Below, piece after piece: positions 1 through 36,087 of a stretch of 64,000 bases of DNA. A program made the position numbers and the translations under genes. The DNA comes from an uncultured Kiritimatiellota bacterium. Its GTDB lineage: Bacteria > Verrucomicrobiota > Kiritimatiellia > RFP12 > UBA1067. The notes under the pieces were generated by a model that was not told the DNA's origin, ran no database searches, and saw only the letters and a list, made by a program, of their open reading frames with translations. The DNA lies in the NCBI GenBank assembly GCA_934635385.1, contig CAKTZI010000011.1, forward strand, positions 20,488 to 84,487. Reading direction: 5' to 3'. Positions within the stretch are counted from its first letter, which is position 1; every line of letters starts with the position of its first letter.

Positions 1-456
1 CAGCGCCTCGATCGCGGCGGGCGGCGCGTAGAGCGACGTGTCGAGGCACGTGTGAAGCCCCGCCGCCTTGAACCGCCCGAACAGCTCCGCCGCCCACTCC
101 CAGAAGAACAGCGGCTCGCCGCCCGACAGCGTGACGCCGCCGCCCGTGCGGTCGTAGAACGGCCTGTCCTCCAGCGCCCGGACGACGAGCGCGTCCTGCG
201 TCCACGGCCTCCCGTAGAGCCTGAACGCCCGCGTCGGACACGTCGCCTCGTCATGCGTGCAGTGCGCACAACGGCGGCAGAGGTGCCGGAAGCGCGCCTC
301 CTGCGGCCTCGGGTCGATGGACTCCGGGTTGTGGCACCAGACGCAGCGGAGCGGACACCCCTTCACGAAGAACGTCGTGCGCAGCCCCGGCCCGTCGTAG
401 ACGGCCATGCGCTTGACGTCCAGCATCAGCGGCGTCCGATACGGCACTTCACTCAT
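1..456 (-). CDS. Glycyl-radical enzyme activating protein (radical SAM, PFL-AE family). Only the N-terminal 152 codons are present; the 3' end lies outside the window.
   Basis: Absent from the ORF track because it is open at the window edge. Translation from the ATG at 456-454 gives MSEVPYRTPLMLDVKRMAVYDGPGLRTTFFVKGCPLRCVWCHNPES. This contains the CxxxCxxC radical-SAM motif, followed by a Cys-rich ferredoxin-like stretch (CRRCAHCTHDEATCP) and GGGVTLSGGEP. The start overlaps the stop of the upstream gene (ATGA). Confidence 0.85.
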   Translation of the reverse strand, partial: MSEVPYRTPLMLDVKRMAVYDGPGLRTTFFVKGCPLRCVWCHNPESIDPRPQEARFRHLCRRCAHCTHDEATCPTRAFRLYGRPWTQDALVVRALEDRPFYDRTGGGVTLSGGEPLFFWEWAAELFGRFKAAGLHTCLDTSLYAPPAAIEAL

Positions 457-3400
457 TCCGCATGCCTCCAAGTCGAGAACCAGCGCCGCTTCGTCGGGCG
501 CTTCGAGAGGCCGCCGTCAAACCAGTCAGGGTAGGCTTTCAGCACGGCCCCGCCCAGCGGCGCGGCCTCGTATGCGAGATCGTCCGGCCCGGCGGCATCC
601 GCCTTCAGCAGCTCCGCCCACGTCGCCTCCGGCTCGAAGCGCGCGGCGTCGTAAGGCTCCGGGTCGGGCAGCCCCGCCCCGTCGCCGGGGATCAGGAAGC
701 CGGACTGCGTCGGCGCGAGGCGCTCCGGCGCGCGCGTCACGCGCCCCGTCGCCGGGTCGAGCCACTTGCCGTCCGCCGCCAGGGGCCTGGCCGTCCCGGA
801 CGCGTTGACGAGGAAGAAGACCGTCGTCCTCCCGTCCGTCCGCGCGACCTGCCCGAACGGGACGTCGAGCCGCGCCTCCGAGGGATCGCCCCACTGCAGG
901 ACGGCCTGGCACCGGTGGCAGTAGCCGAACCAGGCCTCCTCCGCCCTGCCCCAGACCTGGTTGCGCCCGAAGTGGACGCCCCACCGGCCCATCGTGACGC
1001 CGGGCTTCACGTCGTCGCCCCACGGCTGGTGGACGACCGAGTGGAGGACGAGCCGGTTGACGCCGCCGAGGTACGCGCCGTCCCCGCACCGCTTCAGCTG
1101 GGCCGGCGTCTCCGTGAAGGCGGTCGTCTCCGGCGCGCCCGTGAACGCCTCGGCCTCGATGACGTTGTGGCGCGTCCCGTCCAGGCGCCTCCAGCGCGCC
1201 CACGCGCGGCGGTCGACCTTCGCGGGCCTGTCCGGCGTGAACCAGAACTCGGTCATCAGCCGGTCGACGTGGGGCGCGGCCTCTGCCGTCTCGAACGGCC
1301 CCCCGTACGGCTCGCAGGAGAGCTCCAGCCCCTCCGCGCGCACGCGCCGCCCCACCTCGGCGAAGAGGACGTCTCGGTAGAGGTCCTTCACCGTCCGGTC
1401 GAAGTCGCGCCGGAACCTCGCCGCCTCGGCGGCCGTGTAGAGGTTCGTGTAGCCGCCGAGGACCGGCAGGTACGGCATCGGGTCGTAGCCGCGCCGGCGG
1501 CGGAACTCCTCCGGCATCTCCGGCGTCCACGTCGGCGTCCCGGCCTCGTAGCTGTCGAGGAGGATGTGCGTCAGGCCCGCCGCCCGCAGGTCGGGGCCGA
1601 GCCGCCGGTGCAGCTCGCCGAAGACGGCATCGAGATGGAATCGCACGGCCTCGCGGCTCATCTTGTCGCACTCGAGGCCCCGGTTCGCCCAGTCGCAGGG
1701 CTGCGTGAACGCGCCCATGGGGACGTGCCCGACGGGCACGCCGCGCACCGTGCCGAGGGGCACGTAGTCCGTCCGCCGCGCCGCGCAGTCCGGCTTCTCG
1801 TACCGGCCCGCGTCCTCGTTGTAGACGGGGAAGAGCGCGTTCGCCGCCAGCGGGATCTCGCCGACGTCGCGGACGCCGAAGACGAGCTCGCGCATCGCGA
1901 GGCGCGGGGGGATCCACGTGCCGCCCGTGTGCGTGTAGCCCGGGCAGTTGTGGAGCCCGATCCCGATGCCGCGCCGTTTCCCCTCGGCGCAGGCCCGCCT
2001 CACGCACGTCCACCAGGCGTCCGAGTAGGGCTGCCCGATTCCCGTCGGGACGTTCGCGATGCGCTTGGCCCACGGCACCGTCGCGTCCGCCAGCCCGAAG
2101 ATCGTCGCCGACGTCACGCCCCTGCTCGCCATCCAGTCGAGGTCCTTGACGATGCCCTCCTCGGTGACCTGCCGCCCCATCCAGTGCCACCAGACGCCAA
2201 CGTGCGCCTGCGGGGGTGGATTCGCGAACACCTCCTCCGGCGAGGGACGCTTCTCCGCCGCCGCGCGCACGGGCGCGAGGGACAGGTACCCGGAGACGGG
2301 ACAGGCCACGCGCCGGAGGCCATGTGCGAGGGCGACCGTGCCGGTCGCGCGCCCGAACACGTCATGCGCCGTCGCCTCGGCCGCCGCCGCGAGGTCGAGC
2401 GTGAGCGTCGCCTGCCGCGTCGCGTTGAGGACAAGGGTCGCGCGGTCGCCCGCACACGGCACGACCTGCCCCTCGGCGTAGACGGCCACGACGCGCTCCG
2501 TCGCGTCGGCGGACTCGACGAGCGGATACATCAGCTCCGGATGGTGCGCACGGAACGTCCCCTTGAGCAGCGCCGACCGGTGGCGCTTCGCAAAGCCGAT
2601 CCAGTGGCGAATGACGGCACAATGGCTCTCGGGCAGCGTCGCCAGCCGCATCGAGTACTGCACGACGCCGAAGATCGCGTTCAGGATGACGCGTCCCGCG
2701 TCTTCGGGCGTGTCGTCCGGGCTCCAGACGAGCATGTCGGAATGGACGGCCGTCTCGCCGGACGTCAGGCGCAGGTCCGCGATGCGGCGGCGGTTCCCGA
2801 CCAGGTCCGACGGGCAGTCGGTCGCGCGCAGGATGTTGCCGTACGGGCGGATGCCGGGGCCGATGTACTTCTGCCGGAACTCGACCAGCACGTCCGGCTT
2901 GACCGCGACAAGCGCCGCGCGCACGTCCGTCATCAGGCGCTCCACGCCCTCGGAGACCGTCCTGCAGTCGCGCCCCTTCCAGCCCTCGGCAAATGCAGGG
3001 TCGTTCGCATCCACGGAAAAGGCGTCGATGAAGTCGAGCTTGAGCCCGTCGAAGTCCCAGTCGCGTACGCAGCGGACATACGTGTCGACCAGGTACCGGC
3101 GCACCTCCGGGAAGCGCGGGTCGAGGACGCCGACGGTCTTGCCGCAGCGGAGGAACTTTCCCTCGAACCGCCTGTACGCGGCCGATTCCACGCCGACAAA
3201 CGGCACGGACAGCCAGAGAAGATACTTCTCGATGCCCGCCGCGTGGACGGCGTCGACGTGCGCGCGGAAGTCGGGGAAGCGGCCCTTCGCCGGCAGCCAG
3301 TCGCCCGTCGCGGAGTAGACGTCGCGCGACGTCTCCTTCTGCCAGCCGTCGTCGAGGATCATCGACTTCATGCCGAGTTCCGCCGCGAGGCGCGCCTCGC

Positions 3401-4094
3401 GTTCGAGATCGGCGGCGTGGACGTCCTGCCAGAACGCATACCAGCTCGAATAGAGCGGCTCGAACGCCGCCTCCGGCACGCGGCAGGGGGTCAGCCCCGC
3501 CGTCCGCTCGATCCAGCGCGTCGCCTCGGCGACGGCTTCGCCGAACGGCACGGGCCGGCGATCGACGAGGATCTTCACCTCGTAGGACGAACGCGGCGCC
3601 TCCGGCTGCGTGAAGAAGCGGAAGCGCCCTTCCAGCCGCGCGTCCGTCGAATGGCAGGTGATGGCGAACTTCACCGTCCGCCGGCACTCGGACGCGGCAA
3701 TCAGCAGATGGTTCTCGTCGCTTTCGTTGAAGACGCAGCTGATCGGCGGCATCTGCGCCAGCGCGGCGACGTGGCGCACCGTGCCCCATTCCGACGCGAA
3801 CAGGCGGCTGCGCTCGCTCTCCTCGGAGATGGGCACCCAGCAGTTGTGCGCATCCGCCCCGCTCGTCGTCAGGTAGGCGTCGAACACGGGCGGCGCCGCC
3901 GGGACGGGCGACGTCAGCGAGACGGTGAACACCTCGCGACCGACGGCGTCTTCGCCGCGCGTGACGTCAAACGTCCAGTCTCCCGGCTTCTCGCAGCTCG
4001 TCAGAAGCTCGACGGCCAGCGCCGCGCGGCAGGCGACGGCCGCAACCGCCGCCAGCGCAACCGCCCCTCTTCCCCCGGAAGCGGCGCGCGTCAT
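453..4094 (-). CDS. Two-module secreted glycoside hydrolase. The N-terminal half is GH36/GH27-like (alpha-galactosidase type); the C-terminal ~600 aa is an uncharacterised glycosidase-like module.
   Basis: 1213-aa ORF. It contains MILDDGWQ and DGLKLDFIDAF (KxD), motifs typical of the alpha-galactosidase clan. The C-terminal half begins VGVWWHWMGRQVTEEGIVKDLDWMASRGV, which resembles large Bacteroidota/PVC glycosidases. The N-terminus is hydrophobic and Ala-rich. There are ATGA overlaps at both ends. Confidence 0.7.
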   Translation of the reverse strand: MTRAASGGRGAVALAAVAAVACRAALAVELLTSCEKPGDWTFDVTRGEDAVGREVFTVSLTSPVPAAPPVFDAYLTTSGADAHNCWVPISEESERSRLFASEWGTVRHVAALAQMPPISCVFNESDENHLLIAASECRRTVKFAITCHSTDARLEGRFRFFTQPEAPRSSYEVKILVDRRPVPFGEAVAEATRWIERTAGLTPCRVPEAAFEPLYSSWYAFWQDVHAADLEREARLAAELGMKSMILDDGWQKETSRDVYSATGDWLPAKGRFPDFRAHVDAVHAAGIEKYLLWLSVPFVGVESAAYRRFEGKFLRCGKTVGVLDPRFPEVRRYLVDTYVRCVRDWDFDGLKLDFIDAFSVDANDPAFAEGWKGRDCRTVSEGVERLMTDVRAALVAVKPDVLVEFRQKYIGPGIRPYGNILRATDCPSDLVGNRRRIADLRLTSGETAVHSDMLVWSPDDTPEDAGRVILNAIFGVVQYSMRLATLPESHCAVIRHWIGFAKRHRSALLKGTFRAHHPELMYPLVESADATERVVAVYAEGQVVPCAGDRATLVLNATRQATLTLDLAAAAEATAHDVFGRATGTVALAHGLRRVACPVSGYLSLAPVRAAAEKRPSPEEVFANPPPQAHVGVWWHWMGRQVTEEGIVKDLDWMASRGVTSATIFGLADATVPWAKRIANVPTGIGQPYSDAWWTCVRRACAEGKRRGIGIGLHNCPGYTHTGGTWIPPRLAMRELVFGVRDVGEIPLAANALFPVYNEDAGRYEKPDCAARRTDYVPLGTVRGVPVGHVPMGAFTQPCDWANRGLECDKMSREAVRFHLDAVFGELHRRLGPDLRAAGLTHILLDSYEAGTPTWTPEMPEEFRRRRGYDPMPYLPVLGGYTNLYTAAEAARFRRDFDRTVKDLYRDVLFAEVGRRVRAEGLELSCEPYGGPFETAEAAPHVDRLMTEFWFTPDRPAKVDRRAWARWRRLDGTRHNVIEAEAFTGAPETTAFTETPAQLKRCGDGAYLGGVNRLVLHSVVHQPWGDDVKPGVTMGRWGVHFGRNQVWGRAEEAWFGYCHRCQAVLQWGDPSEARLDVPFGQVARTDGRTTVFFLVNASGTARPLAADGKWLDPATGRVTRAPERLAPTQSGFLIPGDGAGLPDPEPYDAARFEPEATWAELLKADAAGPDDLAYEAAPLGGAVLKAYPDWFDGGLSKRPTKRRWFSTWRHAE

Positions 4095-5284
4095 TTCCCG
4101 TCTCCCCGTCCGACCACACGCCTGACGGCATCGAGGTACGCACGGCCGTTGCGCGTGTCAGGCATGAGCCACGAGCCCTCGGTGTACTCGTTCCAGGCGT
4201 TGATGAGAATCGCGCCCGGCTTCTTGGGGTCTTCCGCCGCGCGCCGCAGCGCCGTGCGCAGCGCCCCCGCGAACTTCTCCGGCGTGGCGTTCGCGAAGAT
4301 GCCCATGTAGGGATAGTGGGACGCCCGCCAGGGGAACGGCTCCGCCGGATCGCAGCGCGCCGTGCAGTCCCATCCGCGCGGAACGATCGGGATGTGCATC
4401 GGCGACACCTCCGCGAGCCCGCAGTTCACCGCGTCAGCCGATTCCACGAGATCGTCGTATTCCATCACGAACTGGCGGCTCCGCTCCATGGCCGAGCCTT
4501 TCTTGGAATGGAAGCCGTTGATGGAGTAGACGGACGTCGAGTCGAAGCCCGCCTCGACCGCAGGGCCGGCGTTCCCCGCGTTGAAGACCATCGCGTTGAA
4601 GTGGACGGGCGGAAGTCCCTTCGCCCGCACGAGCGCCTGCGCCTTCGCCAACGTCTCCCGCGTCTTCGCAGGGCCGCCCATGTCCTTCACGAACCGGTCG
4701 CTCGAATACATCGAGAAGAAGATCTTCCCGTCCTTCCGGTAGTAGCCGGGATCGGCGAAATAGGTCTGCGCGCAGTAGGCGAACGCGGCGAGGAAGTCTT
4801 CCTCGGTGCGCGCGAGCTTCCAGAGCCAGTGCTTCTTCTCCTCGCCGAACTTCGACTGGAACGGCACGTCGCGATCATGGTAGGCCCACATCAGGGCGAA
4901 CTTCATGCGGCTGCGGTTCGCCGCCTTCATGAAGCCCCGCTCCAGACCCTCGTGCTGAATGGGCTTTCCGTTCGCCCAGTACCAGTCGTAGAGGAAGACG
5001 TCGATGCCGGCGTCCGCCGCGAGGTCGATCTCCTGCGCGGCGACCTTCGGGTCGCTTTCGTCGTAGAAGCCCATGAGGGGAATGACCGGCTGGTGGTGGC
5101 CGGGGAACTTCGCCACGGTGTTCGAGACGCACATCCATTCGGTCGTCCCCTTCCCGTAATACGCCTCCCATTCGGGGTAGACGTGCCATTCGGGGTAGTA
5201 GATGCACAGGACGTCGATCTTGTCGGGTTCGCCGCCCAGCGCCGTCAGGGCCAGCAGCGACAGCATCGGAATCAGTTTCTTCAT
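4091..5284 (-). CDS. WbsX-family (PF14307-like) glycosidase/glycosyltransferase-fold protein with a Sec signal peptide.
   Basis: MKKLIPMLSLLALTALGG signal. IYYPEWHVYPEWEAYYGKGTTEW...FPGHHQPVIPLMGFYDESDP...GIDVFLYDWYW matches the conserved WbsX N-terminal block. An AAGGAG Shine-Dalgarno sequence lies upstream. Confidence 0.75.
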   Translation of the reverse strand: MKKLIPMLSLLALTALGGEPDKIDVLCIYYPEWHVYPEWEAYYGKGTTEWMCVSNTVAKFPGHHQPVIPLMGFYDESDPKVAAQEIDLAADAGIDVFLYDWYWANGKPIQHEGLERGFMKAANRSRMKFALMWAYHDRDVPFQSKFGEEKKHWLWKLARTEEDFLAAFAYCAQTYFADPGYYRKDGKIFFSMYSSDRFVKDMGGPAKTRETLAKAQALVRAKGLPPVHFNAMVFNAGNAGPAVEAGFDSTSVYSINGFHSKKGSAMERSRQFVMEYDDLVESADAVNCGLAEVSPMHIPIVPRGWDCTARCDPAEPFPWRASHYPYMGIFANATPEKFAGALRTALRRAAEDPKKPGAILINAWNEYTEGSWLMPDTRNGRAYLDAVRRVVGRGDGK

Positions 5285-5329: not shown

Positions 5330-7549
5330 TCACAGGCCTTCCTGCGCCTCGGCGGTCGCGAGGAAGTGCAGCTGCTCGGCGCGGGAGAGGTCGACCCAGC
5401 GCACGTTCCAGCCGCAGACGCGCACCTGCAGGTCGGGGTAGCGCTCCGGGTGCGCCATCGCGTCGCGCAGCGTCGCCGCGCGGAAGCAGTTGAAGTGGAT
5501 GCACTGCCCGCCCCGTTCGGCATACGCCGTGAGGAGCGCGACGAGATGCGCCGCCGCCTCCGGGTTCTCCGCGAGCGTCATCGGCACGATGACGTCCGAG
5601 ATGAACCCGTCCGCCGCCTCGGCCTGGTCGAGCTTCGTCTGCGAGAGGATGAGCGCGGTCGGGCCGCCCGTGCCGCAGCCCGCCGTCGCGGAATTGTTCC
5701 GCGAGAGCGTCTCGCCCGCCTTGCGGCCGTCCGGCGTCGCCGCCGTCTGCCGTCCGAGCAGGAGGTCGTTGTCGATCGACCAGAGCCCCATCTGGAACGT
5801 TCCGCCATGCCCGTTCGGCTCGCGGTTGAGGCGGCGCGCGAGAGCGTCGGACACCTGCCGCGCAAAGGCGTCCGCGCGGTCGTCGTTGTTGCCCCACTTG
5901 GGCGGCACGCGGCGCGCCCGGAGGCGCAGCGTCTCGTGTCCCGCCCAGTCGGCCTTCAGGATGTCGCGCAGTTCGGCCATCGTGACGGCCTTCGCCTCGT
6001 CGACGAGATACCGCACGGCGGCGAGCGCATCGACGACGGTCGCGAGCCCCGCGCACATGACGCCGGACTGGTTGTACTTGAGGCCGCCCGCACAGGCGTC
6101 GCGCGCGTTCGCCACCGCGTCGCGGAACGCGCCCGACATGAGCGGCGAGGGGTTGAGATCCGTCCAGCTCTCGGCGTAGACGCGCGCCGCCGCGCACGCC
6201 CGCGCCGCCACTGCGTCGAGCTGGCGCAGATAGGCGTCCAGAAAGCCGGCGGCGTCCGCCGGGAGCGGCAGGTCGGGGCCGAGTCGGAAGCCGTCGAACG
6301 TGCAGCCGGCGTTGAGCGCAAGCTCAAGCGGCTTGGCGAGGTTGATCCACGCGGTCATCGACGCAATGATCTCGCGGCCCTGGATGCCCGGCTCGTAGCA
6401 GCCGATCAGCACGGCGTCCGCCGCGTCGGCGGGATCCTTTCCGCGCCGCACGAACATCTCCTGCGCCACGTCGTCGTTGAGAAAGACGATCGAGCTGCGT
6501 CCGCGCGCGATGAGGCGGCAGACCTTCTGCAGCTGCTCCGGCGGCGTGCGGCGGCCGAAGCGGAACGTCAGCTTCGGGTTCACGCGGTTGAGTTCATCGT
6601 GCAGCTCAAAGGCGATCTCCGTCAGCTCGTTCCAGACGGGCGCGCCGTCGCGGTCGCAGCCGCCGAGGCCGACGTTCTTGTTGTTGACGAAGTTCTGGAT
6701 CCAGTACTTGTCGAAGGTCGCCCGCACGAGCGCCTTCGCGTCCGCGCGCGTCAGGCGTCCCGCCGCGAGGTCGTCGCGGTAGAAGCGGATGAAGAGGCGG
6801 TCGAAGAGCCCCTGCGTGCGCACGTACTCGCCCTCGGCCTCCTGGCAGCGGTCGTAGAGGAGCCACAGCTGCAGCGCCTCGCGGAACGTGCGTGGCGGAT
6901 GGGCCGCGATCTCGCGCAGCGTCGCCGCACAGGCCGTCGCGCCCCGCGCGTCGGCGACGTCCGCCCAGCGGCGGGCGAACGCGGACATCGCGTCGTAGAC
7001 TTCGGCGACGCAGTCGAGGAACAGGCGTTCCGCATCCGTCGCCGCCGTCTCGCGCCGCGTCCGCGCACGCGCGGCCAGTCCCGTCGGGCCGAGCGTCAGC
7101 ACCGACTCCCAGTCGGGACAGGTGTGGCTCGTGTCGAGACAAGCGTGGTAGGCGCCGTGCGTGTCGCCGCGCCGAACGTCCGTGCCGCCGCCCGTCGCGG
7201 CGAACTCGGGGCGTCCCCGCGCGAACGCCGCGACGCGCACGTCGCGCAGCTCCATCAGGAGCGTGTCGTCGGGACACCAATCGACGAACGTGTCGTCCGC
7301 GCGCACGGCGAGACGCGCGTGCGCAAAGAAGGCGACGAGCTGCTTCGTGCGCGTGACGACGAAGGGACAGCCCTTCGTCTCCTCGGCGATGCGCAGGAGA
7401 AGCGCGCGCAGGTCGGCGCGCGACAGCCCCGAACCGTCCACGATCTCGGCGGTGCGGTCAAAGGGGTTTGGCTTCTTCGCGGCCACCAGATTCGGCGGCA
7501 GGGCGGCAAGCGCCGCCGTGCCCACGACAAATTCCCGCCGGCTCATCAT
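5330..7549 (-). CDS. Glycyl-radical enzyme (PFL2 / dehydratase-lyase clade, divergent and short at 739 aa) with an N-terminal twin-arginine signal.
   Basis: The C-terminus HFNCFRAATLRDAMAHPERYPDLQVRVCGWNVRWVDL is the glycyl-radical fingerprint. LIGCYEPGIQGRE is the Cys-x-Glu thiyl loop. The N-terminus is MMSRREFVVGTAALAALPPNLVAAKK. A GGGGGAAGGA Shine-Dalgarno sequence precedes the start. Confidence 0.9.
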   Translation of the reverse strand: MMSRREFVVGTAALAALPPNLVAAKKPNPFDRTAEIVDGSGLSRADLRALLLRIAEETKGCPFVVTRTKQLVAFFAHARLAVRADDTFVDWCPDDTLLMELRDVRVAAFARGRPEFAATGGGTDVRRGDTHGAYHACLDTSHTCPDWESVLTLGPTGLAARARTRRETAATDAERLFLDCVAEVYDAMSAFARRWADVADARGATACAATLREIAAHPPRTFREALQLWLLYDRCQEAEGEYVRTQGLFDRLFIRFYRDDLAAGRLTRADAKALVRATFDKYWIQNFVNNKNVGLGGCDRDGAPVWNELTEIAFELHDELNRVNPKLTFRFGRRTPPEQLQKVCRLIARGRSSIVFLNDDVAQEMFVRRGKDPADAADAVLIGCYEPGIQGREIIASMTAWINLAKPLELALNAGCTFDGFRLGPDLPLPADAAGFLDAYLRQLDAVAARACAAARVYAESWTDLNPSPLMSGAFRDAVANARDACAGGLKYNQSGVMCAGLATVVDALAAVRYLVDEAKAVTMAELRDILKADWAGHETLRLRARRVPPKWGNNDDRADAFARQVSDALARRLNREPNGHGGTFQMGLWSIDNDLLLGRQTAATPDGRKAGETLSRNNSATAGCGTGGPTALILSQTKLDQAEAADGFISDVIVPMTLAENPEAAAHLVALLTAYAERGGQCIHFNCFRAATLRDAMAHPERYPDLQVRVCGWNVRWVDLSRAEQLHFLATAEAQEGL

Positions 7550-7565
7550 CGTCCGTCCTTCCCCC

Positions 7566-10500
7566 TTACCGGATGATGAGCAGCGCGCCGCCGCAGCGCA
7601 CCGTCAGCACGAGCGCCGTGTCCGTCCGCGTCAGGGAGAACATGCGCGAACCGGCCTTGTCCCGCGCGAGCGTGAACGTCGTCTGCGCGAGGCCGCTTCC
7701 GCAGGTGATGAGCGGATAGTCACCGGCCTTCAGCTTGTTCGGCTTGCCCGTCAGGTCGATTTCGCACGTGGCGGGCAGCGTGAGCGCGGACGCCTTGAGG
7801 TCGATCGCGTCAGCCACGCCGTCCGCCGAGCAGGCGAACGCCAGCGTCGTCTCGTCCGAAATCTCGACCGCGAGCGACGCACCGTCCGCAATCTGCGGCA
7901 GGCGGCGGAGCGACGACGCCCGCACCGTCCCTGCGCCCGTGAGCGTCGCCCCGTTCAGCGCCACGTAGCCGCTCGGCAACAGCCCCAGCCACTTCCAGGA
8001 GAGGTAGGCTTCGGCCGTCTTCAGCTCGGCTTCATCCAGCCGCCGGTTCCACATGAGGATCTCGCCCTGAACGGCCGCGCGCGTGTCCGCGCCGTAAAGG
8101 CGCTCGCTGTTGTAAAGGTACTCGAAGCAGACGGGCCCGTACGCGCCGTCCGGCTGGACGGTCAGGATCTCCGGACGACCGCGAAAGCCCTGCGCCGAGC
8201 CGTCCACCGTCTCGCCGTCGAGGCGCGTCACGCCCTTCGTCAGCACGTCCGCCGTGCCGGCCGGGTAGATGGGCGACGCGGCAGACTGCCCTTCGCGCAC
8301 CTTGTAAAGCGTCTGCGCCGCACCCGGCAGGACGCTGTTGCCGTCCACGAACGGCTGGCCGCCGCCGTACTTGGAGTCCTGTGCCATGACGAGCGTCTGG
8401 AATGCGTTCGTGACGACGTTCCCGGTCCAGGCGCCGTTCGCGGCGACGCGGAAGCGCAGCGTGTTGCCGTCGCTGGCCTGCGTCACGCCCTTCCAGTCGC
8501 TCGTCGTGACGTTCGAGTAGTCGAGCCACGCGCGCGCCGGGCCGAACCCGTGCGCCGACACGTCCTTCCACGGTGCGCGGTCGGTGGTCGTCGCCGTCAG
8601 GGCGAACGCGCCGTCCGTCGCCGTCGCGCCGAAGCGGCGGTCATGGAGCCACGTCACGCGCGACGCGGGCGACTTCGGCTTGGCCGTCGACGTGGTGTCC
8701 TGCTCGACAAGCGCACCTTCCGCGTCGGGGTCGAACCAGCCCGTCATGTCCTTCGTGTCAAGGGCGGTCGCGTCGGGCGGCGGCAGCGCGCCGTCGATCG
8801 TGAGCGTCGCCCCGTCGAGGTGGATCGTCCCCGAAAACGCGCCGGCGATCGCGGCGTCGGCCCGGACGTTCACCGTGCCGGTGCCGTAAAGGGCCGCGCG
8901 CGTCGTCGTGCCCGTCGGGCCTTTGTACTGCGCCGTCAGCCCCCACTTCGTCGCGAGATGCCACTCGATCTGCTGACGCTGCGCGTCCGTGAGTTCCCGG
9001 TCGAAGAGCAGCACTTCGGCATAGGCCTGTCCGCCGTTGTCCACGTTGTTCTTCGCCCCATAGCCCAACCCGGAGAAGCTGTTCGTCGTCGAGCCGAAGT
9101 CAATGGCGATGACCTGCCAGCCGCCGTTCAGCCCCGTCGTCGTCGGCTCGACCGCCTCGCCATCGACCCAGACGCGCGCACCGATCTCGTTGGCCTTCAG
9201 AATCGCGTCCTCCTTCGTGTGCGCGCCGACCTCGCCGCCGCGCAGGAAGTTCGCGTTGCCGCCGAGAAGCGCACCGCCGCCGCCCTGCTGCGATCCGTAG
9301 ACGAGAATCGCCGCGCGCGGCTTCAGGACGACATCCGCCGACACATCGTCTGCCGAGGACGTCTTGGTGAAGAAGATGCGCGGCAGGACCTGGTTGAGCG
9401 GTTCGCAGTCCCGCGCCTCCGTCTCGTCCGCGAAGGTCGCCCGGAAGCTGAGGCTGGGACGGTCGAACGACAGGTAGTCGTGTCCGTTCAGCCCGCCGCG
9501 CACACGGCGCGGATGGCAGAAGGTCATCACGTTGTGGTTCTCGTTGTAAAGCGCGTCGTAGCGACTGTTCCAGAGCCGCACGTCGCACGGCGTGGCGCGG
9601 CAGTCCGACCAGCCCTTGACGAAGGGATTGCCGTCCCTGTCGGAGATTGTCTGCCCGACCTGAAGCGGATTCACGCTCGCGTAGTTGGTGTAGGAGTTCT
9701 CGTAGGTGACGACCAGGTTGGAGATCGTCTCGCCCGCCGCCGCGTCCACCCACAGGAGCGGAAGCGCCGCCCATTCGGCCTGTCGTTCCAGCAGGTTGAT
9801 GGTCGAGCCGTCTTCGCCGCGAATCGGCATCTGCGCACCGTTGTCCGTCGCCGGCGCATAGTCGAGCGTCGCCCCGTTCCGCACGGTGATCTGCACGCGC
9901 GCGTTCACCGACGTCACGCACGCCGTCTCGCGCACGTCCATCGCCGCGCCGAGGCCCGGCGCCGTCGGTGTGCCGTCCGTCACGCGCAACGTCTTCGTGC
10001 CGTCGCCGTTGTCCGCAAACGACGCCGTCGCGAAATCCAGCGCCGCGCCGTCCGCCGCGTCGAGGCACACGAAGTCCGCCGCCGTCAGGGTGCAGGACGT
10101 GGGCACCGTCAGGATCGCCCGGTCGAAGCCGGACTTGGACGGCAGCAGAATGCGCACCGCCCCCGCCGTCTTCAGCGTGTCCGTCACGCGCGCCGTCCCG
10201 CAATCGGCATCCGTCGCGTCGAGAAAGCCGCCCGCGCGCACGTCGAGCGTGCCGATGACCGTCTGCGTACCCGCCGCGAGCTTCAGCGCGCCGCCTGCGT
10301 TCAGCTGGAGGGTGCCAAAGGTCGCCGTTTCGGACGCCGCCCACGCCGCGTTCCCCTTGCCGACCTCGACGATGCCCGCATACGGCGCGAAAAGCGCGAA
10401 TTCGGAAGCCGCTTTCGCGCCCGCCGCGAGGACAAGCCGTGCCGCGCTTTTCGAGCCGTCGCCCCGTCCGTTCCAGACGACACGCGCCGCCGCGTCGTTC

Positions 10501-11180
10501 CGCAGCGTGACGGTCGCGGACGCAGGAGCGTTCAGCGTCCAGTCGAGGCCGTAGACCGTCCGTGCGCCACTGGCCGTGCCGGCCTTGACCAGGAGTTCGG
10601 CGCCCTCCGCAAGCGTCAGCGTGCCGACCGTCTGCGGATCGGCCGAGCTGCGCGCGGCGAAGCTGTACTGATTGCCCGTGCCGACCACGCGCACGTCCGT
10701 TCCGAGATCGACGACGCTCGTGCCCTTCGAGCAGTGGGTGATCGTGCCGGACGAGAGCGTGAGCGACTTGCCGGGGAACGTGTAGCGCTCCGTCGCGCCC
10801 TCTTCGTTCGGCGTCGCCAGCGGCAGGTCTTTCCCCGACACCCAGTAGTCGTAGGAGGCGTTCGGCGGAAAGAAGCCCGTGGCCGTCGTGTCGGCCGCAC
10901 CGTTGCGGTAGAGCGTCCAGCGGTTGACCTTCGAGGAGGCCGTGAGCGAACTGCCGAAGAACCCTTTCCCGTAGTCCGCGTCAGACATGACGGTCGTCTT
11001 CGCGTCGCCGTTCAGCGTGTTCGCGTAGAGGCTGTCCGCATTGTAGTCCGACTTCGTCAGGACGGCATACGTCCCGTCGGACGGCAGGGCCGCAAAGCCC
11101 GCCAGCGACACAAGCCCCGCCGCAACGGCGACAAGTCCGTGACGGCACGTCTTTTTCTTTTGCGTGATTATCTTTTTCAT
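7566..11180 (-). CDS. Giant secreted surface protein with beta-helical/autotransporter-type repeats and at least two LamG (concanavalin-like) domains.
   Basis: 1204 aa with a signal peptide. Repeated GTLTLAEGAELLV- and TLQLNAGGALKLAAG-type strands. LamG domain ends are AEVLLFDRELTDAQRQQIEWHLATKWGL and GEILMWNRRLDEAELKTAEAYLSWKWLGL. An AAGGAG Shine-Dalgarno sequence is present. Only 16 nt separate it from the GRE gene. Confidence 0.85.
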   Translation of the reverse strand: MKKIITQKKKTCRHGLVAVAAGLVSLAGFAALPSDGTYAVLTKSDYNADSLYANTLNGDAKTTVMSDADYGKGFFGSSLTASSKVNRWTLYRNGAADTTATGFFPPNASYDYWVSGKDLPLATPNEEGATERYTFPGKSLTLSSGTITHCSKGTSVVDLGTDVRVVGTGNQYSFAARSSADPQTVGTLTLAEGAELLVKAGTASGARTVYGLDWTLNAPASATVTLRNDAAARVVWNGRGDGSKSAARLVLAAGAKAASEFALFAPYAGIVEVGKGNAAWAASETATFGTLQLNAGGALKLAAGTQTVIGTLDVRAGGFLDATDADCGTARVTDTLKTAGAVRILLPSKSGFDRAILTVPTSCTLTAADFVCLDAADGAALDFATASFADNGDGTKTLRVTDGTPTAPGLGAAMDVRETACVTSVNARVQITVRNGATLDYAPATDNGAQMPIRGEDGSTINLLERQAEWAALPLLWVDAAAGETISNLVVTYENSYTNYASVNPLQVGQTISDRDGNPFVKGWSDCRATPCDVRLWNSRYDALYNENHNVMTFCHPRRVRGGLNGHDYLSFDRPSLSFRATFADETEARDCEPLNQVLPRIFFTKTSSADDVSADVVLKPRAAILVYGSQQGGGGALLGGNANFLRGGEVGAHTKEDAILKANEIGARVWVDGEAVEPTTTGLNGGWQVIAIDFGSTTNSFSGLGYGAKNNVDNGGQAYAEVLLFDRELTDAQRQQIEWHLATKWGLTAQYKGPTGTTTRAALYGTGTVNVRADAAIAGAFSGTIHLDGATLTIDGALPPPDATALDTKDMTGWFDPDAEGALVEQDTTSTAKPKSPASRVTWLHDRRFGATATDGAFALTATTTDRAPWKDVSAHGFGPARAWLDYSNVTTSDWKGVTQASDGNTLRFRVAANGAWTGNVVTNAFQTLVMAQDSKYGGGQPFVDGNSVLPGAAQTLYKVREGQSAASPIYPAGTADVLTKGVTRLDGETVDGSAQGFRGRPEILTVQPDGAYGPVCFEYLYNSERLYGADTRAAVQGEILMWNRRLDEAELKTAEAYLSWKWLGLLPSGYVALNGATLTGAGTVRASSLRRLPQIADGASLAVEISDETTLAFACSADGVADAIDLKASALTLPATCEIDLTGKPNKLKAGDYPLITCGSGLAQTTFTLARDKAGSRMFSLTRTDTALVLTVRCGGALLIIR

Positions 11181-11460: not shown

Positions 11461-12156
11461 TTAAAGGAGTGTCAGCATCTCGTCTGACGTCTTTCGCTCC
11501 CGCCTGTCTTGCAGTACTTCTTCCCTTGTCCGCATCGGTCGTCCCAAGAACGCTTCCACAAGAGCCTTTGCCCGTGTACGCTCCGCGTCTGTGGCATTGT
11601 AACGCTTGCAGTCGGAATCGAATATCCTTTCAAACGACGCCACATACGTCTCATATCGTCCCAGACAATATCGATAGGCGCGACGCCACGACTCGAATTT
11701 CTGGGGGTTATTCTTTCTCAACCGAACGGATTCGCCATTTGAGGCCATCGCTTTCCATCGGTCGAGTTCCCGTCTCATCCATCCGAATTGCCGAATTTTG
11801 GCTTTGCATTCGTCCTCAATCGTCCATCGCCCCGTCTCGCTCCACCGATAGGGCATCAGCCAACTCCAAACGTTTACGAACACACGGCATTGCCGTTCGT
11901 AGTCTTCGCCTTGAAGCTTGACGTCACACAATTTGTCGTCCAAAATCCGATAACAGGCCGCGCGAACGGCTCGGTTCGTCTCCGACAGGATCAGATCGCC
12001 CACGCGGTCGAGCGGGTCTCGCACATTCGGTTCGCCCAGCCGCCGAATGGCCCTGTCTGCCTTTTTCTCGACTTTGCGAAGGAAAGGGTCTTTTCCTCCG
12101 TCGCAGCCCACGACCGTCAGTGCTATCAGAATGCCGAATAAGATATGCCTTACCAT
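11461..12156 (-). CDS. Hypothetical lipoprotein.
   Basis: 231 aa. MVRHILFGILIALTVVGCDGG contains a lipobox. It overlaps the upstream gene by 7 nt (ATGGTAA). No recognisable family. Confidence 0.6.
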   Translation of the reverse strand: MVRHILFGILIALTVVGCDGGKDPFLRKVEKKADRAIRRLGEPNVRDPLDRVGDLILSETNRAVRAACYRILDDKLCDVKLQGEDYERQCRVFVNVWSWLMPYRWSETGRWTIEDECKAKIRQFGWMRRELDRWKAMASNGESVRLRKNNPQKFESWRRAYRYCLGRYETYVASFERIFDSDCKRYNATDAERTRAKALVEAFLGRPMRTREEVLQDRRERKTSDEMLTLL

Positions 12157-15100
12157 AGTTTCACCCCATCAAGATAAACAGATCCCAGCACCTCGCGGAC
12201 GGCCTCATGCCGCAGCTTGCGCACGCCCGCCGTGCCGAATTCGTCAATTGTGAACGTCTGCGTCTCGTCCGCCGCAAAGCACTTCCAAGGTTCCGCGCCG
12301 TCAGTCGTTTGGGGGACATTCCAGCCCAAGGGAATGCACCAGACGTTCTCCCCTGCAATCCATCCCACGGACAGGGATTCGGAGAGCTGTCCGCCCGGCG
12401 TCATGCGCGGATACGGTTGCGTACACGCCGCCGTGTCACGCGCATCAATGATGTTCTCGTCCAGGACGCGAAACCAGACTCCAGCACCATTCTCACGTGA
12501 GTGGCAGCGGTCTCCGTCAAAGTAGGAATGCGTGAAATAGCCGGTCTGAACGCCCATCGTCGATGGCACTTCCTCGACCCAGATCTCCTGGAACGAGACG
12601 TCCAGAGGAAGAACCTGTATGTCCAGCTGAAGTCCGATTCCGCCCGCGCTAAGCGACGAAAGCCCGTATGTGACTACGCCGGGATTGAGCGCGCGGACGC
12701 CTGACGGCTCCACGACCAGGATCGAGGGCGTATAGGAGACTCCGCCGCAAACGACTTCCAGCGGATTCGACTCGGCGTCAAGCGGGCATCGGTATGTTTT
12801 GTCCTTCTGCATCCTGCCACCGCCTTTCACATTCCACGAAACGTTCGCGACTTCTGGTTCAAAACCGCAGTCGATCAATTCATAAACGCCAAACTTATGT
12901 CGTCCTTCGCTTCCGTTTCCGCCTTCAATCTGAATCGGTCTAATTGTGACCTTGACCGCCGTCAGCGTCGCCTCGGACGTGATCTTCTCCCCGCTCTCCT
13001 CCTCGGTGAAGGTCGCGACGGCCTTGACGTCGCCCGCGCCGCCGCTCGCCGACTGCGCCCGGTACCTCACCTTGATCTTGAACGACTCGCCCGCCTCGAC
13101 CGTCCCCTCGCGCGGCAGGAACGAGCCGCCCACACGTTCGAGCCGTCCGCCGTCGCGCAGCTCGAAGGAATACGAGCCGCCCTTCGTCCCGCCGTAGACG
13201 CTGAACTCGGCTTCGGTCTCCGTCGAGCGCCGCGCGACCGTCTCGCCCGGCGCGTTCTCGTACTCGTCCTCGAAGATGATCGCGGACTCGGAGAACGTCG
13301 CCGAGACGGACAGCCCCTGCGGCTCGTGGTCAGGCTCGTCCTCATCGGGATACGTCGGCCTGTCGGGCGGCGACTCGTGCGAGCAGCCGCAGGGCCAGTC
13401 CGCGAACGACAGCTCGAAGCCCTCGAAGCGGCACGTGTACGTCCCGACCGCGCAGCCTCCGCAGCCGCAGTTCCCGTCGCAGCTGAACAGGGGCACGGTG
13501 AACGGCGGTGGCGGCGGCTCAAGGCAGCAGTAGTTGCCGTTCCACGACACGTCGGCGCCGTCGGGCGCGGGCGTGAAGCGCACGCGCCGTCCGCCTGACG
13601 CGGCGCGGGGCGCGACGGCGGACGCACGGAACGCGGCGACGGGCGAACCGTCCACGATCTCGCACCGGACAGGGCGGCAGACCGTCAGGTGTCCGTCCGC
13701 GTCTACGCCAATTTCGATGTCGGGATGGGATGCGCCGACGCAGACGAGCGTCAGCCGGCAATCGGCGGTGTAGGACTTGCCGAGCAGAAGGACGACGCGG
13801 TTCGTCTCGCCGGCCTTCGCGACGAACGATGGATCGGGCAGGTTCGACGCGCCGCTGCCCGTGAACGTCACGAGGGCGTTCGCGGCAGGGGCGACGAGAT
13901 CGACCCAGTAGTAGTTGTTGGAATGCGCGATGGAGGACAGGTCTTGGCGCGGGCCGAACTGCGGCTCGTCCGCCGCGACAAGCGGCGCGCCGTCCACGTC
14001 ATTCGGGATGCCGTCGTCGTCCCAGTCGTCAGGGTTGACGCGGCGATAGACGCGCTCGATGTCATTGGAGCGCGCGATGAAGTCGCCGTTCGGGAAGAGC
14101 TCGAGCTGCGCGTTGACGGCTGGATGGTCAACAACCTGTCTCTTGACCACGGAAGACACGGAAGCCACATTCGTGGACACAGAAAGGATTAGCGAAGAAT
14201 GCCCTTCGGGGTTCTCCAATCCGTTTTCTCCCAACATGTTCCCAGAAGTTGGGAGAACAGGGGTTGAGGAATCCCGAAGGGCTCCTTTCTCTAACCCATT
14301 CCGTGTCACCGGAGGCGTTTCATCTCTTTCCGTGGTTTGAGAAGAAGAAACGGACACTTCCGCTCTCTCATACGGGTTGCCGAGGAAGAAGTTCTCCCAC
14401 GTCAGCACGACCGAGCCGTTCGTGGTCGCCGCCGTCCAAAGATAGGACTGTCCGTGTCGCGCGAACATCGGCGCGCCGATGACGGCGATCTCGTTCGAGG
14501 CGTTCCGCAGCTGCGGGCGCACCTTGCCCCACGTGTGCGCCCAGAGCGACGTCACGACGTGGCGACCCAAAGGGAAAAGGAAGATGGAAGAAGGAAGAAG
14601 TGCGGAACGGTCCGCTTTCCTGTGCTGTCCGACGGCCTCGGATTCCGCAACAGAGGAGTTGTCCTCCGCACTTCTTCCTTTTCCCTTCTTCCCTTTTCCT
14701 TCCTCCCCCAACATCACCCATACACGCCCCCTGTAGGCGTCGGTGAGATGCCACGTGCTGACGAGCCGTGCGTTCGTCGGTCGCGTGTAGGAAACGGCCT
14801 TGTTCGTCCGCACCGCTTCGAGGCGGTAGCCCCGCACGACGTCGTTGGATGAGAGAGTGGGGTTGCTGTCGCCTAACGCGGAGTTGTAGGAGGAGGGGAG
14901 GCACGGAGTTTCTTTACTGTCTGTCGAAGTTTTGTCCACGGATTGACACGGATTATCACGGATTTGGATTTGTGTCGCTTCGTGTTGATTCGTGGATGAT
15001 CCTTCTCCCGATCCGTGTGAATCCGTGAAATCCGTGGATGCCTCTCCGTGCCTCCGCATCTCCTCATCCTCCGCATTAAGCGTCGCAGACCCCTCTGCGG

Positions 15101-18458: not shown

Positions 18459-18769
18459 AGGGTTCCGCACCCCAAGTTTTACGGAAGGCACAGTCGCCGG
18501 GCGCAGAAAAAGGAACGGCGTGCCTTCACATCATGTTCCACCTGAGGCACGACCAAGCGCCTTATCAAAAACACGGAATAGAAGACACGCCGCGTGTGAC
18601 CGACACGCGACGCATCTTACATATTCGGCTCTTGATTGAAGATTTGGTCGGTTTTCAGATGGAGCCAAATACGCAAGAATGCGTACGCCTCGCGGGCCTC
18701 GGATGGGTTTCCGCGAGTCCTTCTCCTTTCGGCCCCATTGGGCAACCGTAGGTAAAAGGTTTTGCCGCC

Positions 18770-19158: not shown

Positions 19159-20685
19159 TCAGTACCGCTGCAGCAGCTCCAGCATCTTGCGGTCGATCCG
19201 ATGGCCCTGGAACGCCTCATAGTCCACGTCCGCGCGATTGCTGTCCAGCAGCCCGAACCCGCCGCGGAAGTTCCAGAACGCCCAGCCGATGTTGCGCGCC
19301 TTCAGCTCCTTCAGCAGGCTTTCGAGATAGGCGAGCGACACGTCGTGCGGCGTCCGGTTGAAGACGCCCGTCTCGCCGACCATGACGAACCGCCCCGCCG
19401 CGAGCGCGTCCTCCCAGGGGGCGAAGACGTTGTCGCGCAGGAAGTCCGCGCCCGTGTAGGCCGCTCCGTCCCGGTTCACGAGCGGCTGCGGCGCGTCCCA
19501 GCCCGCGAAGCGCACGGGCGTCCGCGCGGGCATCCACGGCAGCCGCCAGCGGTAGGACGGGACGACGCGCGCCGACCGCCCGTCCGCCGCGAACACGAGG
19601 GCGTCCACCTCCATCCAGTCGCCCTGACCCAAGCCGATCTCCAGCCGCGCGCACGCCGGCACGTCCACCGCAAACGGCGCCACGGGTACACCCGCCCACT
19701 CCTCGTTGGAGCGCGCCACAAGGTTCGTGTAGCCGTCCGCCCCCTTCTCCTGCGGGAAGAAACGCCGGCGACCGACTTCGCGGCCGTCGGCCTTCACGAC
19801 GAGTTCCGCGAGGCGGTTGACGCGACCCGGCACGACCGTCAGCCGGCAGGCGGGTACCCGCTCGATGACGATCGGCTCGTCCACCCCCTTCTTGCGCGAG
19901 CCGTAGAGCGGACTCGTCACGGGGACGGGCGGCCACTGCGGCGTCGGCCACGCGCCGTCGCGCCTGCACCAGGGCGCCTCGTAGTGCGTGATCTCCATCG
20001 GGTCGTACACGTGAAGGCTCAGGCCGACGGACGCGGGAATCTCGCCGCGCGGCGGCATCCGCGCCATCTGGAGGCCGTCCGCCACGACGAACCGCGCGGG
20101 CGACTCAGCGTGGATCGCCTGCTCGCAGGCGGCGATGAACGCCGCGTAGGCCGCCGCGTCGCAGTCGGCGCTCGGCTCGTTGAAGAGGTTGAAGGAGAGG
20201 GCGTCGCCCGGAACGTCGCGGTAGCGGCGCGCGAAGAACGTCCAGCAGGCGACGTTCGCGCGGATGAGCGCAGGGGCTTCGAGAATCGCCTTCTTCGAGC
20301 GGCTGACCGCATAGTCCACGCCCGGCGGAATCGAGAAGCAGAACTGGATGTGGATGTTGTGCTTCCGGCCCCAGCCAAGCATCTCGTCGATGGGCGGGAA
20401 GAGCGCGGGGTCCGGCTCGAACGTGCCGGGACGGCAGAAGTAGCGGTGGTCGATCATGACGCGCGCGAAGTTGAAGCCCCAGTCGCGCATGAGGATGAGG
20501 TCGCGCTCGTCCCACGTCCCGGAGAACATGCCCTTGATGGCCTTGCCGTCGATGTTGAAGCCGCGCCAGCGCACGGCGGGACGTCCCGGCGCGCCAGCGG
20601 GCGTCGCGTCCGCCGCGCACGCACCACCGAAGCAGACGCCGAAGCCGAGAATGAACAGGAGAGCAATCTGTGAGCCGTTTTTCAT
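19159..20685 (-). CDS. Glycoside hydrolase family 5 (cellulase/mannanase-type), secreted.
   Basis: MRDWGFNFARVMIDHRYF. FNLFNEPS carries the NEP acid/base Glu and MVGETGVFN the nucleophile Glu. Signal peptide MKNGSQIALLFILGFGVCFGGACAA. The true ATG is at 20685; the track ORF is extended to 20781. Confidence 0.85.
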   Translation of the reverse strand: MKNGSQIALLFILGFGVCFGGACAADATPAGAPGRPAVRWRGFNIDGKAIKGMFSGTWDERDLILMRDWGFNFARVMIDHRYFCRPGTFEPDPALFPPIDEMLGWGRKHNIHIQFCFSIPPGVDYAVSRSKKAILEAPALIRANVACWTFFARRYRDVPGDALSFNLFNEPSADCDAAAYAAFIAACEQAIHAESPARFVVADGLQMARMPPRGEIPASVGLSLHVYDPMEITHYEAPWCRRDGAWPTPQWPPVPVTSPLYGSRKKGVDEPIVIERVPACRLTVVPGRVNRLAELVVKADGREVGRRRFFPQEKGADGYTNLVARSNEEWAGVPVAPFAVDVPACARLEIGLGQGDWMEVDALVFAADGRSARVVPSYRWRLPWMPARTPVRFAGWDAPQPLVNRDGAAYTGADFLRDNVFAPWEDALAAGRFVMVGETGVFNRTPHDVSLAYLESLLKELKARNIGWAFWNFRGGFGLLDSNRADVDYEAFQGHRIDRKMLELLQRY

Positions 20686-20690
20686 GGTGT

Positions 20691-20798
20691 GCGTATTATC
20701 GCATAATCCGCCAGCAAATGCTTGCACGATTGGGCTAAAAAAGTGTATGATCGGCTCATCCCCTTCAAGGCGGGAATACAAGGGCGCGACAGGCGGAG
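20691..20798 (-). promoter_or_regulatory. Conserved ~107-bp upstream module, copy 2. Its extended -10 TGCGATAAT (20695-20703) lies 9 nt from the GH5 ATG.
   Basis: Aligns with 11214-11320. It lies between GH5 and the divergent AraC gene. Confidence 0.55.
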
Positions 20799-31097: not shown

Positions 31098-31552
31098 TGA
31101 CGCTCCTCGTCCGTCAGCCGGTAGAAGTTTGGCAGGTTGGGGGCGCGCGTGAACGTGGTCGATCCCGACGTCTCGCTCTCGCCATTCAACTTGCGGATGC
31201 AAAACCTGTACGTCTGTCCCCACGGATCGACGACCTGTCCGCCGCGCAGCTGGGCGTTGTAGAGAACCGGCACGTCGTCGCCGCTTTCGGACTTCTCGTT
31301 GCCGAGAATCATGCCGAGGTTGCCCTCGGTCGCGTCTTTCCATCCGCCGGTGTCATAGTCCACCAGCGAACGGTTCTTGGCATAGTTGCGGAAGCCAAGA
31401 ATCGCGTTCGTGATCTCCTTCGCGTCCTGCGTCGCCTTGGCGATCTTCGCGCGCCGCCGCGCCTGGCCCATGCTCGACCCGACAGCTCCGACGAGAACCG
31501 CGATCATCCCGATCACGACAAGAAGCTCCAACAGCGTAAAGGCCCGTCTCAT
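31094..31552 (-). CDS. GspG-like (major-type) pseudopilin.
   Basis: MRRAFTLLELLVVIGMIAVLVG, plus a DPWGQTYRF motif (DPWGxxY, typical of GspG). Confidence 0.75.
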   Translation of the reverse strand: MRRAFTLLELLVVIGMIAVLVGAVGSSMGQARRRAKIAKATQDAKEITNAILGFRNYAKNRSLVDYDTGGWKDATEGNLGMILGNEKSESGDDVPVLYNAQLRGGQVVDPWGQTYRFCIRKLNGESETSGSTTFTRAPNLPNFYRLTDEERQ

Positions 31553-33559: not shown

Positions 33560-33562
33560 CGC

Positions 33563-34195: not shown

Positions 34196-34208
34196 TTCGC
34201 CTCCCTGA

Positions 34209-34829: not shown

Positions 34830-34842
34830 TCTTCTGCCTTTC

Positions 34843-36033: not shown

Positions 36034-36042
36034 TCTTGGAGA

Positions 36043-36051: not shown

Positions 36052-36087
36052 CATCCCCTCAGAATCCCGCAAGCGGTCACGTGAAAT

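Follow-up and report, generated by a model that had tools for sequence, protein, structure and literature searches.

The glycyl-radical enzymes (GREs) of the 1,2-eliminase class, such as CutC, glycerol dehydratase, 1,2-propanediol dehydratase and HypD, have a ten-stranded barrel with a G-C-x-E-P loop and an RVxG[WY] loop, and are served by a dedicated radical S-adenosylmethionine (SAM) activase with a CX3CX2C motif and a ferredoxin-like Cys cluster. GREs and radical-SAM activases are treated as strictly intracellular, and this view shapes annotation, substrate guesses and the catalogues of substrates of the twin-arginine translocation (Tat) system. The usual assumption is that GRE substrates are small cytoplasmic metabolites and Tat substrates metal-cofactor enzymes. 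Here we analysed a GRE gene on a 64,000-nucleotide stretch of DNA (the window) from an uncultured Kiritimatiellota bacterium (assembly GCA_934635385.1, contig CAKTZI010000011.1, positions 20,488 to 84,487), whose product starts with a leader of Tat type. We consider it rather probable (roughly 0.6) that this product is a functional 1,2-eliminase-class GRE, activated in the cytoplasm and exported by Tat to a periplasmic glycan-degrading pathway. An earlier reading made from the letters of the DNA, without database searches (the sequence-only reading), had recognized the export signal and knew of no described exported GRE. In our full-text search of the literature, we likewise found no description of a GRE or radical-SAM activase that is exported or periplasmic.

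The window GRE shares the barrel, the two loops and the dedicated activase with the characterised 1,2-eliminases. It differs from them in sequence (identity only 22-25%), in length (739 amino acids (aa) versus ~790-850), in its loops (GCYEP and RVCGW) and in an invariant Cys that precedes the glycyl-radical residue. Every characterised member is cytoplasmic or housed in a microcompartment, whereas the window GRE has an export signal at its N-terminus; it is also encoded among secreted glycosidases, not among aldehyde-handling enzymes.

Three other systems offer partial parallels. TorA, DmsAB, periplasmic hydrogenases and formate dehydrogenases mature in the cytoplasm and are then exported folded, as we propose here, and their Tat signals have the same S/T-R-R-x-F motif, followed by a weakly hydrophobic h-region and then by basic residues. 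Unlike these enzymes, the window GRE would be matured by a protein radical and not by a metal cofactor, no dedicated chaperone was seen, and its family uses signals of the general secretory (Sec) pathway in sister lineages. The sulfatases matured by anSME/AtsB, abundant in the same phylum, are also glycan-degrading enzymes modified at one residue by a cytoplasmic radical-SAM enzyme and then exported. However, their formylglycine is stable, made on an unfolded chain and compatible with Sec, whereas a GRE radical needs the folded barrel, and many maturases of the Kiritimatiellae GRE systems themselves bear export signals. In the loci for GRE microcompartments (GRM), an N-terminal extension likewise sends the GRE to a compartment apart from the cytoplasm, but these encapsulation peptides are short amphipathic helices and not signals with a twin arginine (RR), an h-region and an AxA site.

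The GRE gene, its leader and its catalytic loops are as follows:

5330-7549, minus strand: GRE gene, 739 aa, glycyl-radical enzyme of the 1,2-eliminase class
7478-7549, minus strand: predicted Tat-type signal peptide, residues 1-24, based on translation, conservation and a low predicted local distance difference test score (pLDDT)
7526-7543, minus strand: twin-arginine motif S3-R4-R5-E6-F7-V8, from the translation; RRxF kept in orthologues
7556-7565, minus strand: Shine-Dalgarno-like GGGGGAAGGA, ending 6 nt before the ATG at 7547-7549
6389-6403, minus strand: Cys loop G383-C384-Y385-E386-P387, aligned on GCVEP of CutC
5408-5422, minus strand: glycyl-radical loop R710-V-C-G713-W714, aligned on RVAGY/RVAGW of CutC and PFL2

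The translated N-terminus reads MMSRREFVVGTAALAALPPNLVAAKKP / MMSRREFVVGTAALAALPPNLVAAKKPNPFDR. It has an n-region MMSRRE, an h-region of 18 uncharged residues (FVVGTAALAALPPNLVAA) and a predicted cleavage site after VAA and before KKP, the two Lys being basic residues past the h-region. Residues 3-9 (S-R-R-E-F-V-V) agree with the (S/T)-R-R-x-F-L-K consensus near the N-terminus. The SRRxF motif, the mildly hydrophobic h-region and the V-A-A site proposed in the sequence-only reading were all found in the translation, and its anchoring of the start by a Shine-Dalgarno sequence and an upstream stop also held. The gene is real, because its G + C content at third codon positions is 0.92, compared with 0.64 over the whole window. 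The leader must be translated as well, since a strong ribosome-binding site precedes it, the TAA stop of the preceding gene (7566-7568) lies 16 nt upstream of the ATG, and the next Met comes only near residue 99. These same points, together with conservation of the leader at the protein level, rule out a wrong start codon. A chance RR motif was ruled out too: across the 64-kb window, no codon-biased open reading frame (ORF) other than that of the GRE has an N-terminus of the form [ST]RRx[hydrophobic], and the motif is conserved in orthologues. In the AlphaFold model, computed from an alignment of 30 sequences, residues 1-30 form the only long segment with a pLDDT <50, and the average exceeds 90 from residue 31 onwards.

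Searching 5.8 billion proteins gave 219 homologues. The analyses were done on the best 120 (55-100% identical, ~730 aa), which come from Kiritimatiellia and Verrucomicrobia-labelled metagenomes. Species-representative genomes were scanned with the family motifs L[IV]GCYEP[GA]I and LQVRVCGW, and the signal-bearing clade is a subset of the >560 loci recovered across several phyla. With signal classes assigned by a simple heuristic of our own and inspection by eye, this Kiritimatiellae clade of 120 homologues had ~30 RR-type leaders and ~80 Sec-type leaders, e.g., MNRSAVLLVAFTLCIRPALG-YGPWLEW. The window GRE's own subclade is RR-type. Almost all full-length proteins of the clade bear a signal peptide. 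The orthologue comparison that the sequence-only reading had pointed to came out in its favor: the RR leader is kept in P0002-P0006, P0008, P0009, P0011-P0014, P0016-P0018, P0020 and P0024-P0030, and RRxF is retained from 60% to 96% identity. The few clade members called signal-less are incomplete gene models, except P0114 and P0115, which are truly leaderless, with an in-frame stop abutting the ATG, and keep the adjacent activase.

Relatives at 35-47% identity (from Lentisphaeria, Victivallales, Armatimonadia, Clostridia and others) start with M-W-N-T-F-D-x-V-R..L-E-x-Q-Y, and lack a hydrophobic leader; an activase nearly always follows directly downstream. In the alignment, the MWNTFDR start of these cousins falls on NPFDR, residues 28-32 of the window GRE, so the 27-residue leader is an add-on before the ancestral N-terminus. 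By this alignment the leader was acquired, not inherited. The h-regions of RR-type leaders were less hydrophobic than those of non-RR leaders (mean 2.05 versus 2.65, Mann-Whitney p 9e-7), and more basic residues followed them (1.36 versus 0.68). Both are established differences between Tat and Sec signals. The maximum 10-residue h-region hydrophobicity of the window GRE leader, 2.21, lies inside the range of the RR-type leaders of the clade. In a neighbor-joining tree rooted on the cytoplasmic cousins, the signal-bearing clade was monophyletic, with several switches between Tat and Sec. Some GREs have extra N-terminal domains behind a Sec signal (P0037, 1073 aa; P0061, 1104 aa; L196 6420-9554, 1044 aa), and the extra domain of P0037 is inosine-uridine nucleoside hydrolase-like (PF01156).

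The earlier call of the gene as a GRE was upheld by Pfam domains, structure matches and catalytic loops. PFL-like (PF02901) matched residues 140-599 at 2.2e-90, and Gly_radical (PF01228) matched at 1.4e-16. The closest solved structures by sequence (E ~1e-60) were CutC, A. fulgidus PFL2 and the B12-independent glycerol dehydratase. The model (mean pLDDT 91.6, predicted template modeling score 0.90) has the PFL-like ten-stranded alpha/beta barrel, and Foldseek aligned it with the GRE eliminases 2f3o, 1r8w, 5i2g and 5a0u at a template modeling score of ~0.82. The Cys loop supplies the predicted thiyl-radical Cys384 and the general base Glu386, that is, the C-x-E of the 1,2-eliminase/dehydratase subclass. 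G383, C384, Y385, E386, P387, C712 and G713 are invariant in 120/120 homologues, Sec-type ones included, and the Cys- and Gly-loop motifs also define the distant, activase-linked cousins at 35-47% identity. The best NCBIfam match, TIGR01774, and every equivalog model scored far below their cut-offs, which places the GRE in no named equivalog. The product has every sequence-testable feature of an eliminase-class GRE, and its radical machinery is predicted to be intact.

The GRE gene is the second of five close-packed genes on the same strand. Its operon partners, from upstream to downstream, are:

7566-11180, minus strand: 1204-aa secreted protein with a Sec-type signal and without a Pfam match, directly upstream of the GRE
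4091-5284, minus strand: WbsX-like protein (PF14307) with a Sec-type signal peptide
453-4094, minus strand: two-module glycosidase, melibiase-like plus GH106 alpha-L-rhamnosidase, with a signal-like N-terminus
1-456, minus strand: GRE-activating radical-SAM enzyme, N-terminal 152 aa inside the window, the gene being cut by the window start

The activase at 1-456 went unnoticed in the sequence-only reading. An activase-less locus can be dismissed: a CX3CX2C scan of the called ORFs stayed blank as the window edge cuts the gene, and tblastn, queried with the activase of a related locus, matched 435-1 and located it. The product matches TIGR02494 (GRE activase) at 1.3e-43 and has the motif CPLRCVWC. 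As the last gene of the operon, it is translationally coupled, its ATG overlapping the stop of the GH106 gene (ATGA). Its N-terminus has no signal peptide, and all four other operon products are signal-bearing, including the WbsX-like protein and the two-module glycosidase, for which the sequence-only reading had proposed a Sec signal and a signal-like N-terminus; both were confirmed. An identical operon of five genes, in which the activase is complete (257 aa), was found on a contig from a Hadza human-gut metagenome (L088). The same layout, with a GRE 96% identical, occurs in the metagenome-assembled genome (MAG) UBA1629 (L008).

The 1204-aa protein is 50% identical to a protein upstream of a Sec-type GRE (L171), and searches of PDB and Pfam with it gave no informative match. 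A conserved partner gene upstream of the GRE was ruled out, the upstream genes being diverse and the 1204-aa protein shared by L171 only. The operon contains no gene for a Tat-proofreading chaperone. No bacterial microcompartment shell protein was matched by tblastn with PduA in the window or in ~220 fetched loci; this lack of shell genes, and the signal-peptide architecture of the leader, rule out a microcompartment targeting peptide. Further glycan-related genes lie near the operon (15525-18491, 19159-20781, 20871-21812 and 22635-24416): a BspA-type LRR_5 surface protein, a GH5 glycoside hydrolase, an AraC/PAS regulator and a DUF5696/DUF6259 protein. DUF6259 is also found beside the Sec-type GRE in L169.

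Activases with leaders of their own were found in relatives. In L169, the gene of the Sec-type GRE P0109 overlaps an activase gene whose product starts with MTRKDFIGSAVAFSVVPMSAADGRK, followed by the usual MKTPLMLD. After it comes a second, different GRE starting with MTRRNFIGGSAALMGAAVAGQVATQGA, whose leader passes TIGR01409 with 23.3 bits. Among the Kiritimatiellae-type activases fetched, similar leaders occur in L089, L090, L091 and L094. A protein search with the L091 activase gave best 120 matches of 270-290 aa, 73-98% identical, all of which (120/120) carry M..TR[RK]xF..AAFA[VI]SPM.SAAGR before KTPLMLD. The arginine pair is RK in 88/120 and RR in ~28. RK and KR pairs are known, less efficient Tat motifs. 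With PF10518, the RR versions gave weak matches of ~16 bits and the RK versions none. The hydrophobicity of the activase leaders (2.06) matches that of Tat-type GRE leaders.

A genome scan for activases with a single-protein query recovered 54 loci, every one in a Kiritimatiellae-type MAG from gut or rumen, with ~38 leader-bearing and ~20 leaderless activases. The leader is translated, because the canonical start position is a non-start codon in 30/38 distinct leader-bearing genes (L089-L219) and a Shine-Dalgarno motif precedes the leader ATG in 31/38. The other 8/38 keep an ATG, GTG or TTG at the canonical start, and exported plus cytoplasmic isoforms are possible for them. Nine distinct orphan activases, with no GRE in the fetched flanks, lie among housekeeping genes, and all are leader-bearing. 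Near the 38 leader-bearing activases we found no conserved exported electron carrier or SAM transporter, and only GREs recur there. A 55-aa Fer4-like ORF in L169, considered as an electron donor, looks like a fragment.

Several other GRE groups adjoin leader-bearing activases. GREs of ~790 aa (L169 13503-15869, L208 1489-3879, L202 7601-9973 and L175 7492-9867) make up a second GRE family, with a Cys loop IGCGCWNG that has no Glu two residues on, a Gly loop RVCGFSARF, and Tat-type leaders (MTRRNFIGG..., MNVSRRQFFGF...) that pass TIGR01409. A third group (L094 3659-5926, L181 3671-5917, L190 7809-10001, and L194 1471-3717 and 7710-9974) is 30-35% identical to the window GRE, ~730-760 aa long and present in two copies at some loci. 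In its members a Sec-type leader precedes GRGESWMPKPP or AAFEDDLPYLKSKWR, and a leader-bearing activase comes directly downstream. Signal-less GREs also adjoin such activases, in L089 (6585-8915, stop/start overlap) and L179 (1800-4001); this could reflect hitchhiker co-export or cytoplasmic use of the activase.

The type of activase leader is matched to the type of GRE signal. We paired each activase with the GRE directly beside it and removed duplicates. Beside leader-bearing activases, 15-16 GREs are Sec-type, 4-5 are Tat-type and 2 are signal-less; beside leaderless activases, the numbers are 0, 8 and 2, respectively. The share of Sec-type GREs is 0/8 for leaderless and 15-16/20 for leader-bearing activases (Fisher p 1.6e-4 to 4e-4, uncorrected for phylogeny). 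The pattern recurs in the family of the window GRE and in a second family 30-35% identical to it. An apparent exception, L197, with a leaderless activase beside a Sec-type GRE, was rejected, for a GTG start gives MPKTTRRMFIGG, which is Tat-type. Sec-type GREs of the window family mostly have no activase within 10 kb (L006, L007, L019-L021, L170 and L171). In the MAGs JAGCMU01 and JAKSOW01, Sec-type GREs co-occur with leader-bearing activases (L210 and L206, respectively). From the MAG UBA1731, which has a Sec-type GRE, only a leaderless activase was recovered; this MAG is incomplete, so the case is no refutation. An extracytoplasmic GRE pathway is made more likely by these family-wide signals, which include Sec-type GREs and Tat-leader activases.

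On the reading we prefer, the leaderless activase would install the radical at Gly713 of the folded GRE in the cytoplasm, where SAM and reduced flavodoxin/ferredoxin are available, and Tat would export the enzyme folded and radical-bearing. Once in the periplasm, which would be anoxic in this gut anaerobe, the GRE would use Cys384 and Glu386 for a radical elimination, and its glycan-derived substrate would come from the secreted glycosidases encoded alongside it. We infer the export itself, its order relative to activation and the kind of substrate. Activation followed by export of the folded protein, as the sequence-only reading had envisaged, is physically possible because a cognate activase without a signal ends the same operon; it cannot be the sole route in the family.

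Several observations weigh against this reading. The description of the signal as 'textbook' holds for the anatomy and is qualified by the scores: hidden Markov models (HMMs) of Tat signals place the leader below their curated thresholds: PF10518 gives 19.0 bits (E 1.3e-3; gathering score 22.7) and TIGR01409 gives 13.7 bits (E 0.06; cut-off 16.7). Other leaders of the clade pass such models (P0016, 24.0; GREs of the second, ~790-aa family, 23.3 and 17.2). Tat and Sec leaders occur side by side in the clade, whose basal lineages are Sec-type; in other families such mixing usually means that cytoplasmic folding is not obligatory. The classes themselves come from our own heuristic and inspection by eye, and the Fisher test on the pairs ignores phylogenetic relatedness. 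At an identity of at least 55%, >100 alignment columns are invariant, so the invariance of the Gly and Cys residues is moderate evidence. UBA1629, the closest relative, has both kinds of activase, the leaderless L209 and the leader-bearing RR-type L208. There is no known precedent for a glycyl radical that survives Tat transit. Finally, the 64-kb window contains no tat gene, and the presence of Tat in this genome is deduced from relatives. In favor of the reading, tat genes, which the sequence-only reading had proposed to look for in the genome, were found outside the window in the phylum and in a MAG with an 88% identical GRE. In this MAG, UMGS1035 (L202), a leader-bearing activase and a Tat-type GRE are followed, two genes downstream, by a TatA/B-like gene (11621-12175) and tatC (12172-12969), and a GRE fragment (L011) is the one 88% identical to the window GRE. 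Tat genes are also present in Kiritimatiella glycovorans (PMC5148204).

The presence of two activases in UBA1629, one in the operon and one elsewhere, would also suit an export of the GRE without its radical, followed by (re)activation in the periplasm by a second, Tat-leader activase. The leaderless activase of the operon would then be redundant, a hitchhiker with the GRE, or intended for another GRE. The 4-5 Tat-type GREs beside leader-bearing activases fit such a route, and Sec-type GREs are not activatable before export, so that a periplasmic route must exist if they are active. For the window GRE we nevertheless regard it as unlikely, for SAM and a reducing electron have no known source outside the cytoplasm, the surroundings of the 38 leader-bearing activase genes hold no conserved exported carrier or transporter, and leaderless activases adjoin Tat-type or signal-less GREs and no others, as cytoplasmic activation predicts.

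Less probable again is a GRE that stays in the cytoplasm, with an RR leader that is vestigial, binds a chaperone (compare the remnant twin-arginine motif of NarG) or tethers the protein to the membrane. The sub-threshold HMM scores, the cytoplasmic activase of the operon and the loss of the leader in the subclade of P0114 and P0115, which keeps its adjacent activase, would agree with it, and all other GREs known so far work in the cytoplasm or in microcompartments. Yet the leader was acquired and not inherited, and sister lineages swapped it for classical, AxA-containing Sec signals that serve no purpose in the cytoplasm. In addition, all other non-activase products of the operon are predicted to be secreted, the operon lacks a Tat-proofreading chaperone gene, and activases of the clade gained Tat leaders in a pattern matched to the GRE signal type. 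We give very little weight to an exported protein that has the GRE fold without using a radical and plays a structural, binding or non-radical role in glycan breakdown. In its favor, most clade members are Sec-type with no activase within 10 kb, and the invariance of Gly and Cys says little against it at this level of identity. It accords poorly with the retention of G713, C384 and E386 both in 120/120 homologues and in the 35-47% cousins with adjacent activases, with the translationally coupled activase at the end of the GRE operon, with the overlapping activase gene of the Sec-type member in L169, and with exported-type activases being widespread in the same genomes. For the window GRE we retain, as the most probable reading, activation in the cytoplasm and subsequent export by Tat.

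A wider proposal, which we make tentatively and at somewhat less than even odds, is that Kiritimatiellae run complete extracytoplasmic glycyl-radical systems in two ways: a Tat-leader GRE with a cytoplasmic activase, or a Sec-leader GRE with a Tat-exported activase. In the second solution, the Sec-leader GRE would fold in the periplasm and be activated by a radical-SAM activase exported by Tat together with its Fe-S clusters. We know of no other route than Tat for exporting a protein with Fe-S clusters already inserted. Such an activase might already carry SAM and a reduced cluster when it is exported, and act a single time per GRE monomer, which would be consistent with the single-turnover behavior of the PFL activase.

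Other genes of the window deserve mention. A homologue of MnmG/GidA (52085-54667, minus strand) has 860 aa, ~230 aa more than usual, and its Pfam GIDA match is split in two stretches, suggesting a large insertion. Prepilin-type N-termini (MKKGFTLIELLVV) are encoded by seven consecutive genes (31094-36072) and by one further gene (26793-27782), all on the minus strand, with a 1183-aa protein without a Pfam match (27792-31343) between them. Such genes are typical of the Planctomycetes-Verrucomicrobia-Chlamydiae (PVC) group and are likely type II secretion pseudopilins. A 767-aa fusion protein (37555-39858, minus strand) combines a Na+/H+ exchanger domain with a phosphotransferase system (PTS) EIIA-2 domain.

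The exported clades are matched by hundreds of metagenomic proteins. Their matched signals raise the questions of whether a protein radical can survive Tat and whether a radical-SAM enzyme can work without cytoplasmic SAM and reductant. If the wider proposal is correct, Kiritimatiellae would provide the first GRE known to work outside the cytoplasm and the first radical-SAM enzyme known to be exported, and radical C-O cleavage would join the tools of anaerobes for periplasmic polysaccharide breakdown. If the GRE indeed acts in the periplasm, alongside the secreted glycosidases, gut and rumen anaerobes would apply radical elimination directly to glycans or oligosaccharides, which may explain how Kiritimatiellae attack linkages that resist hydrolases.

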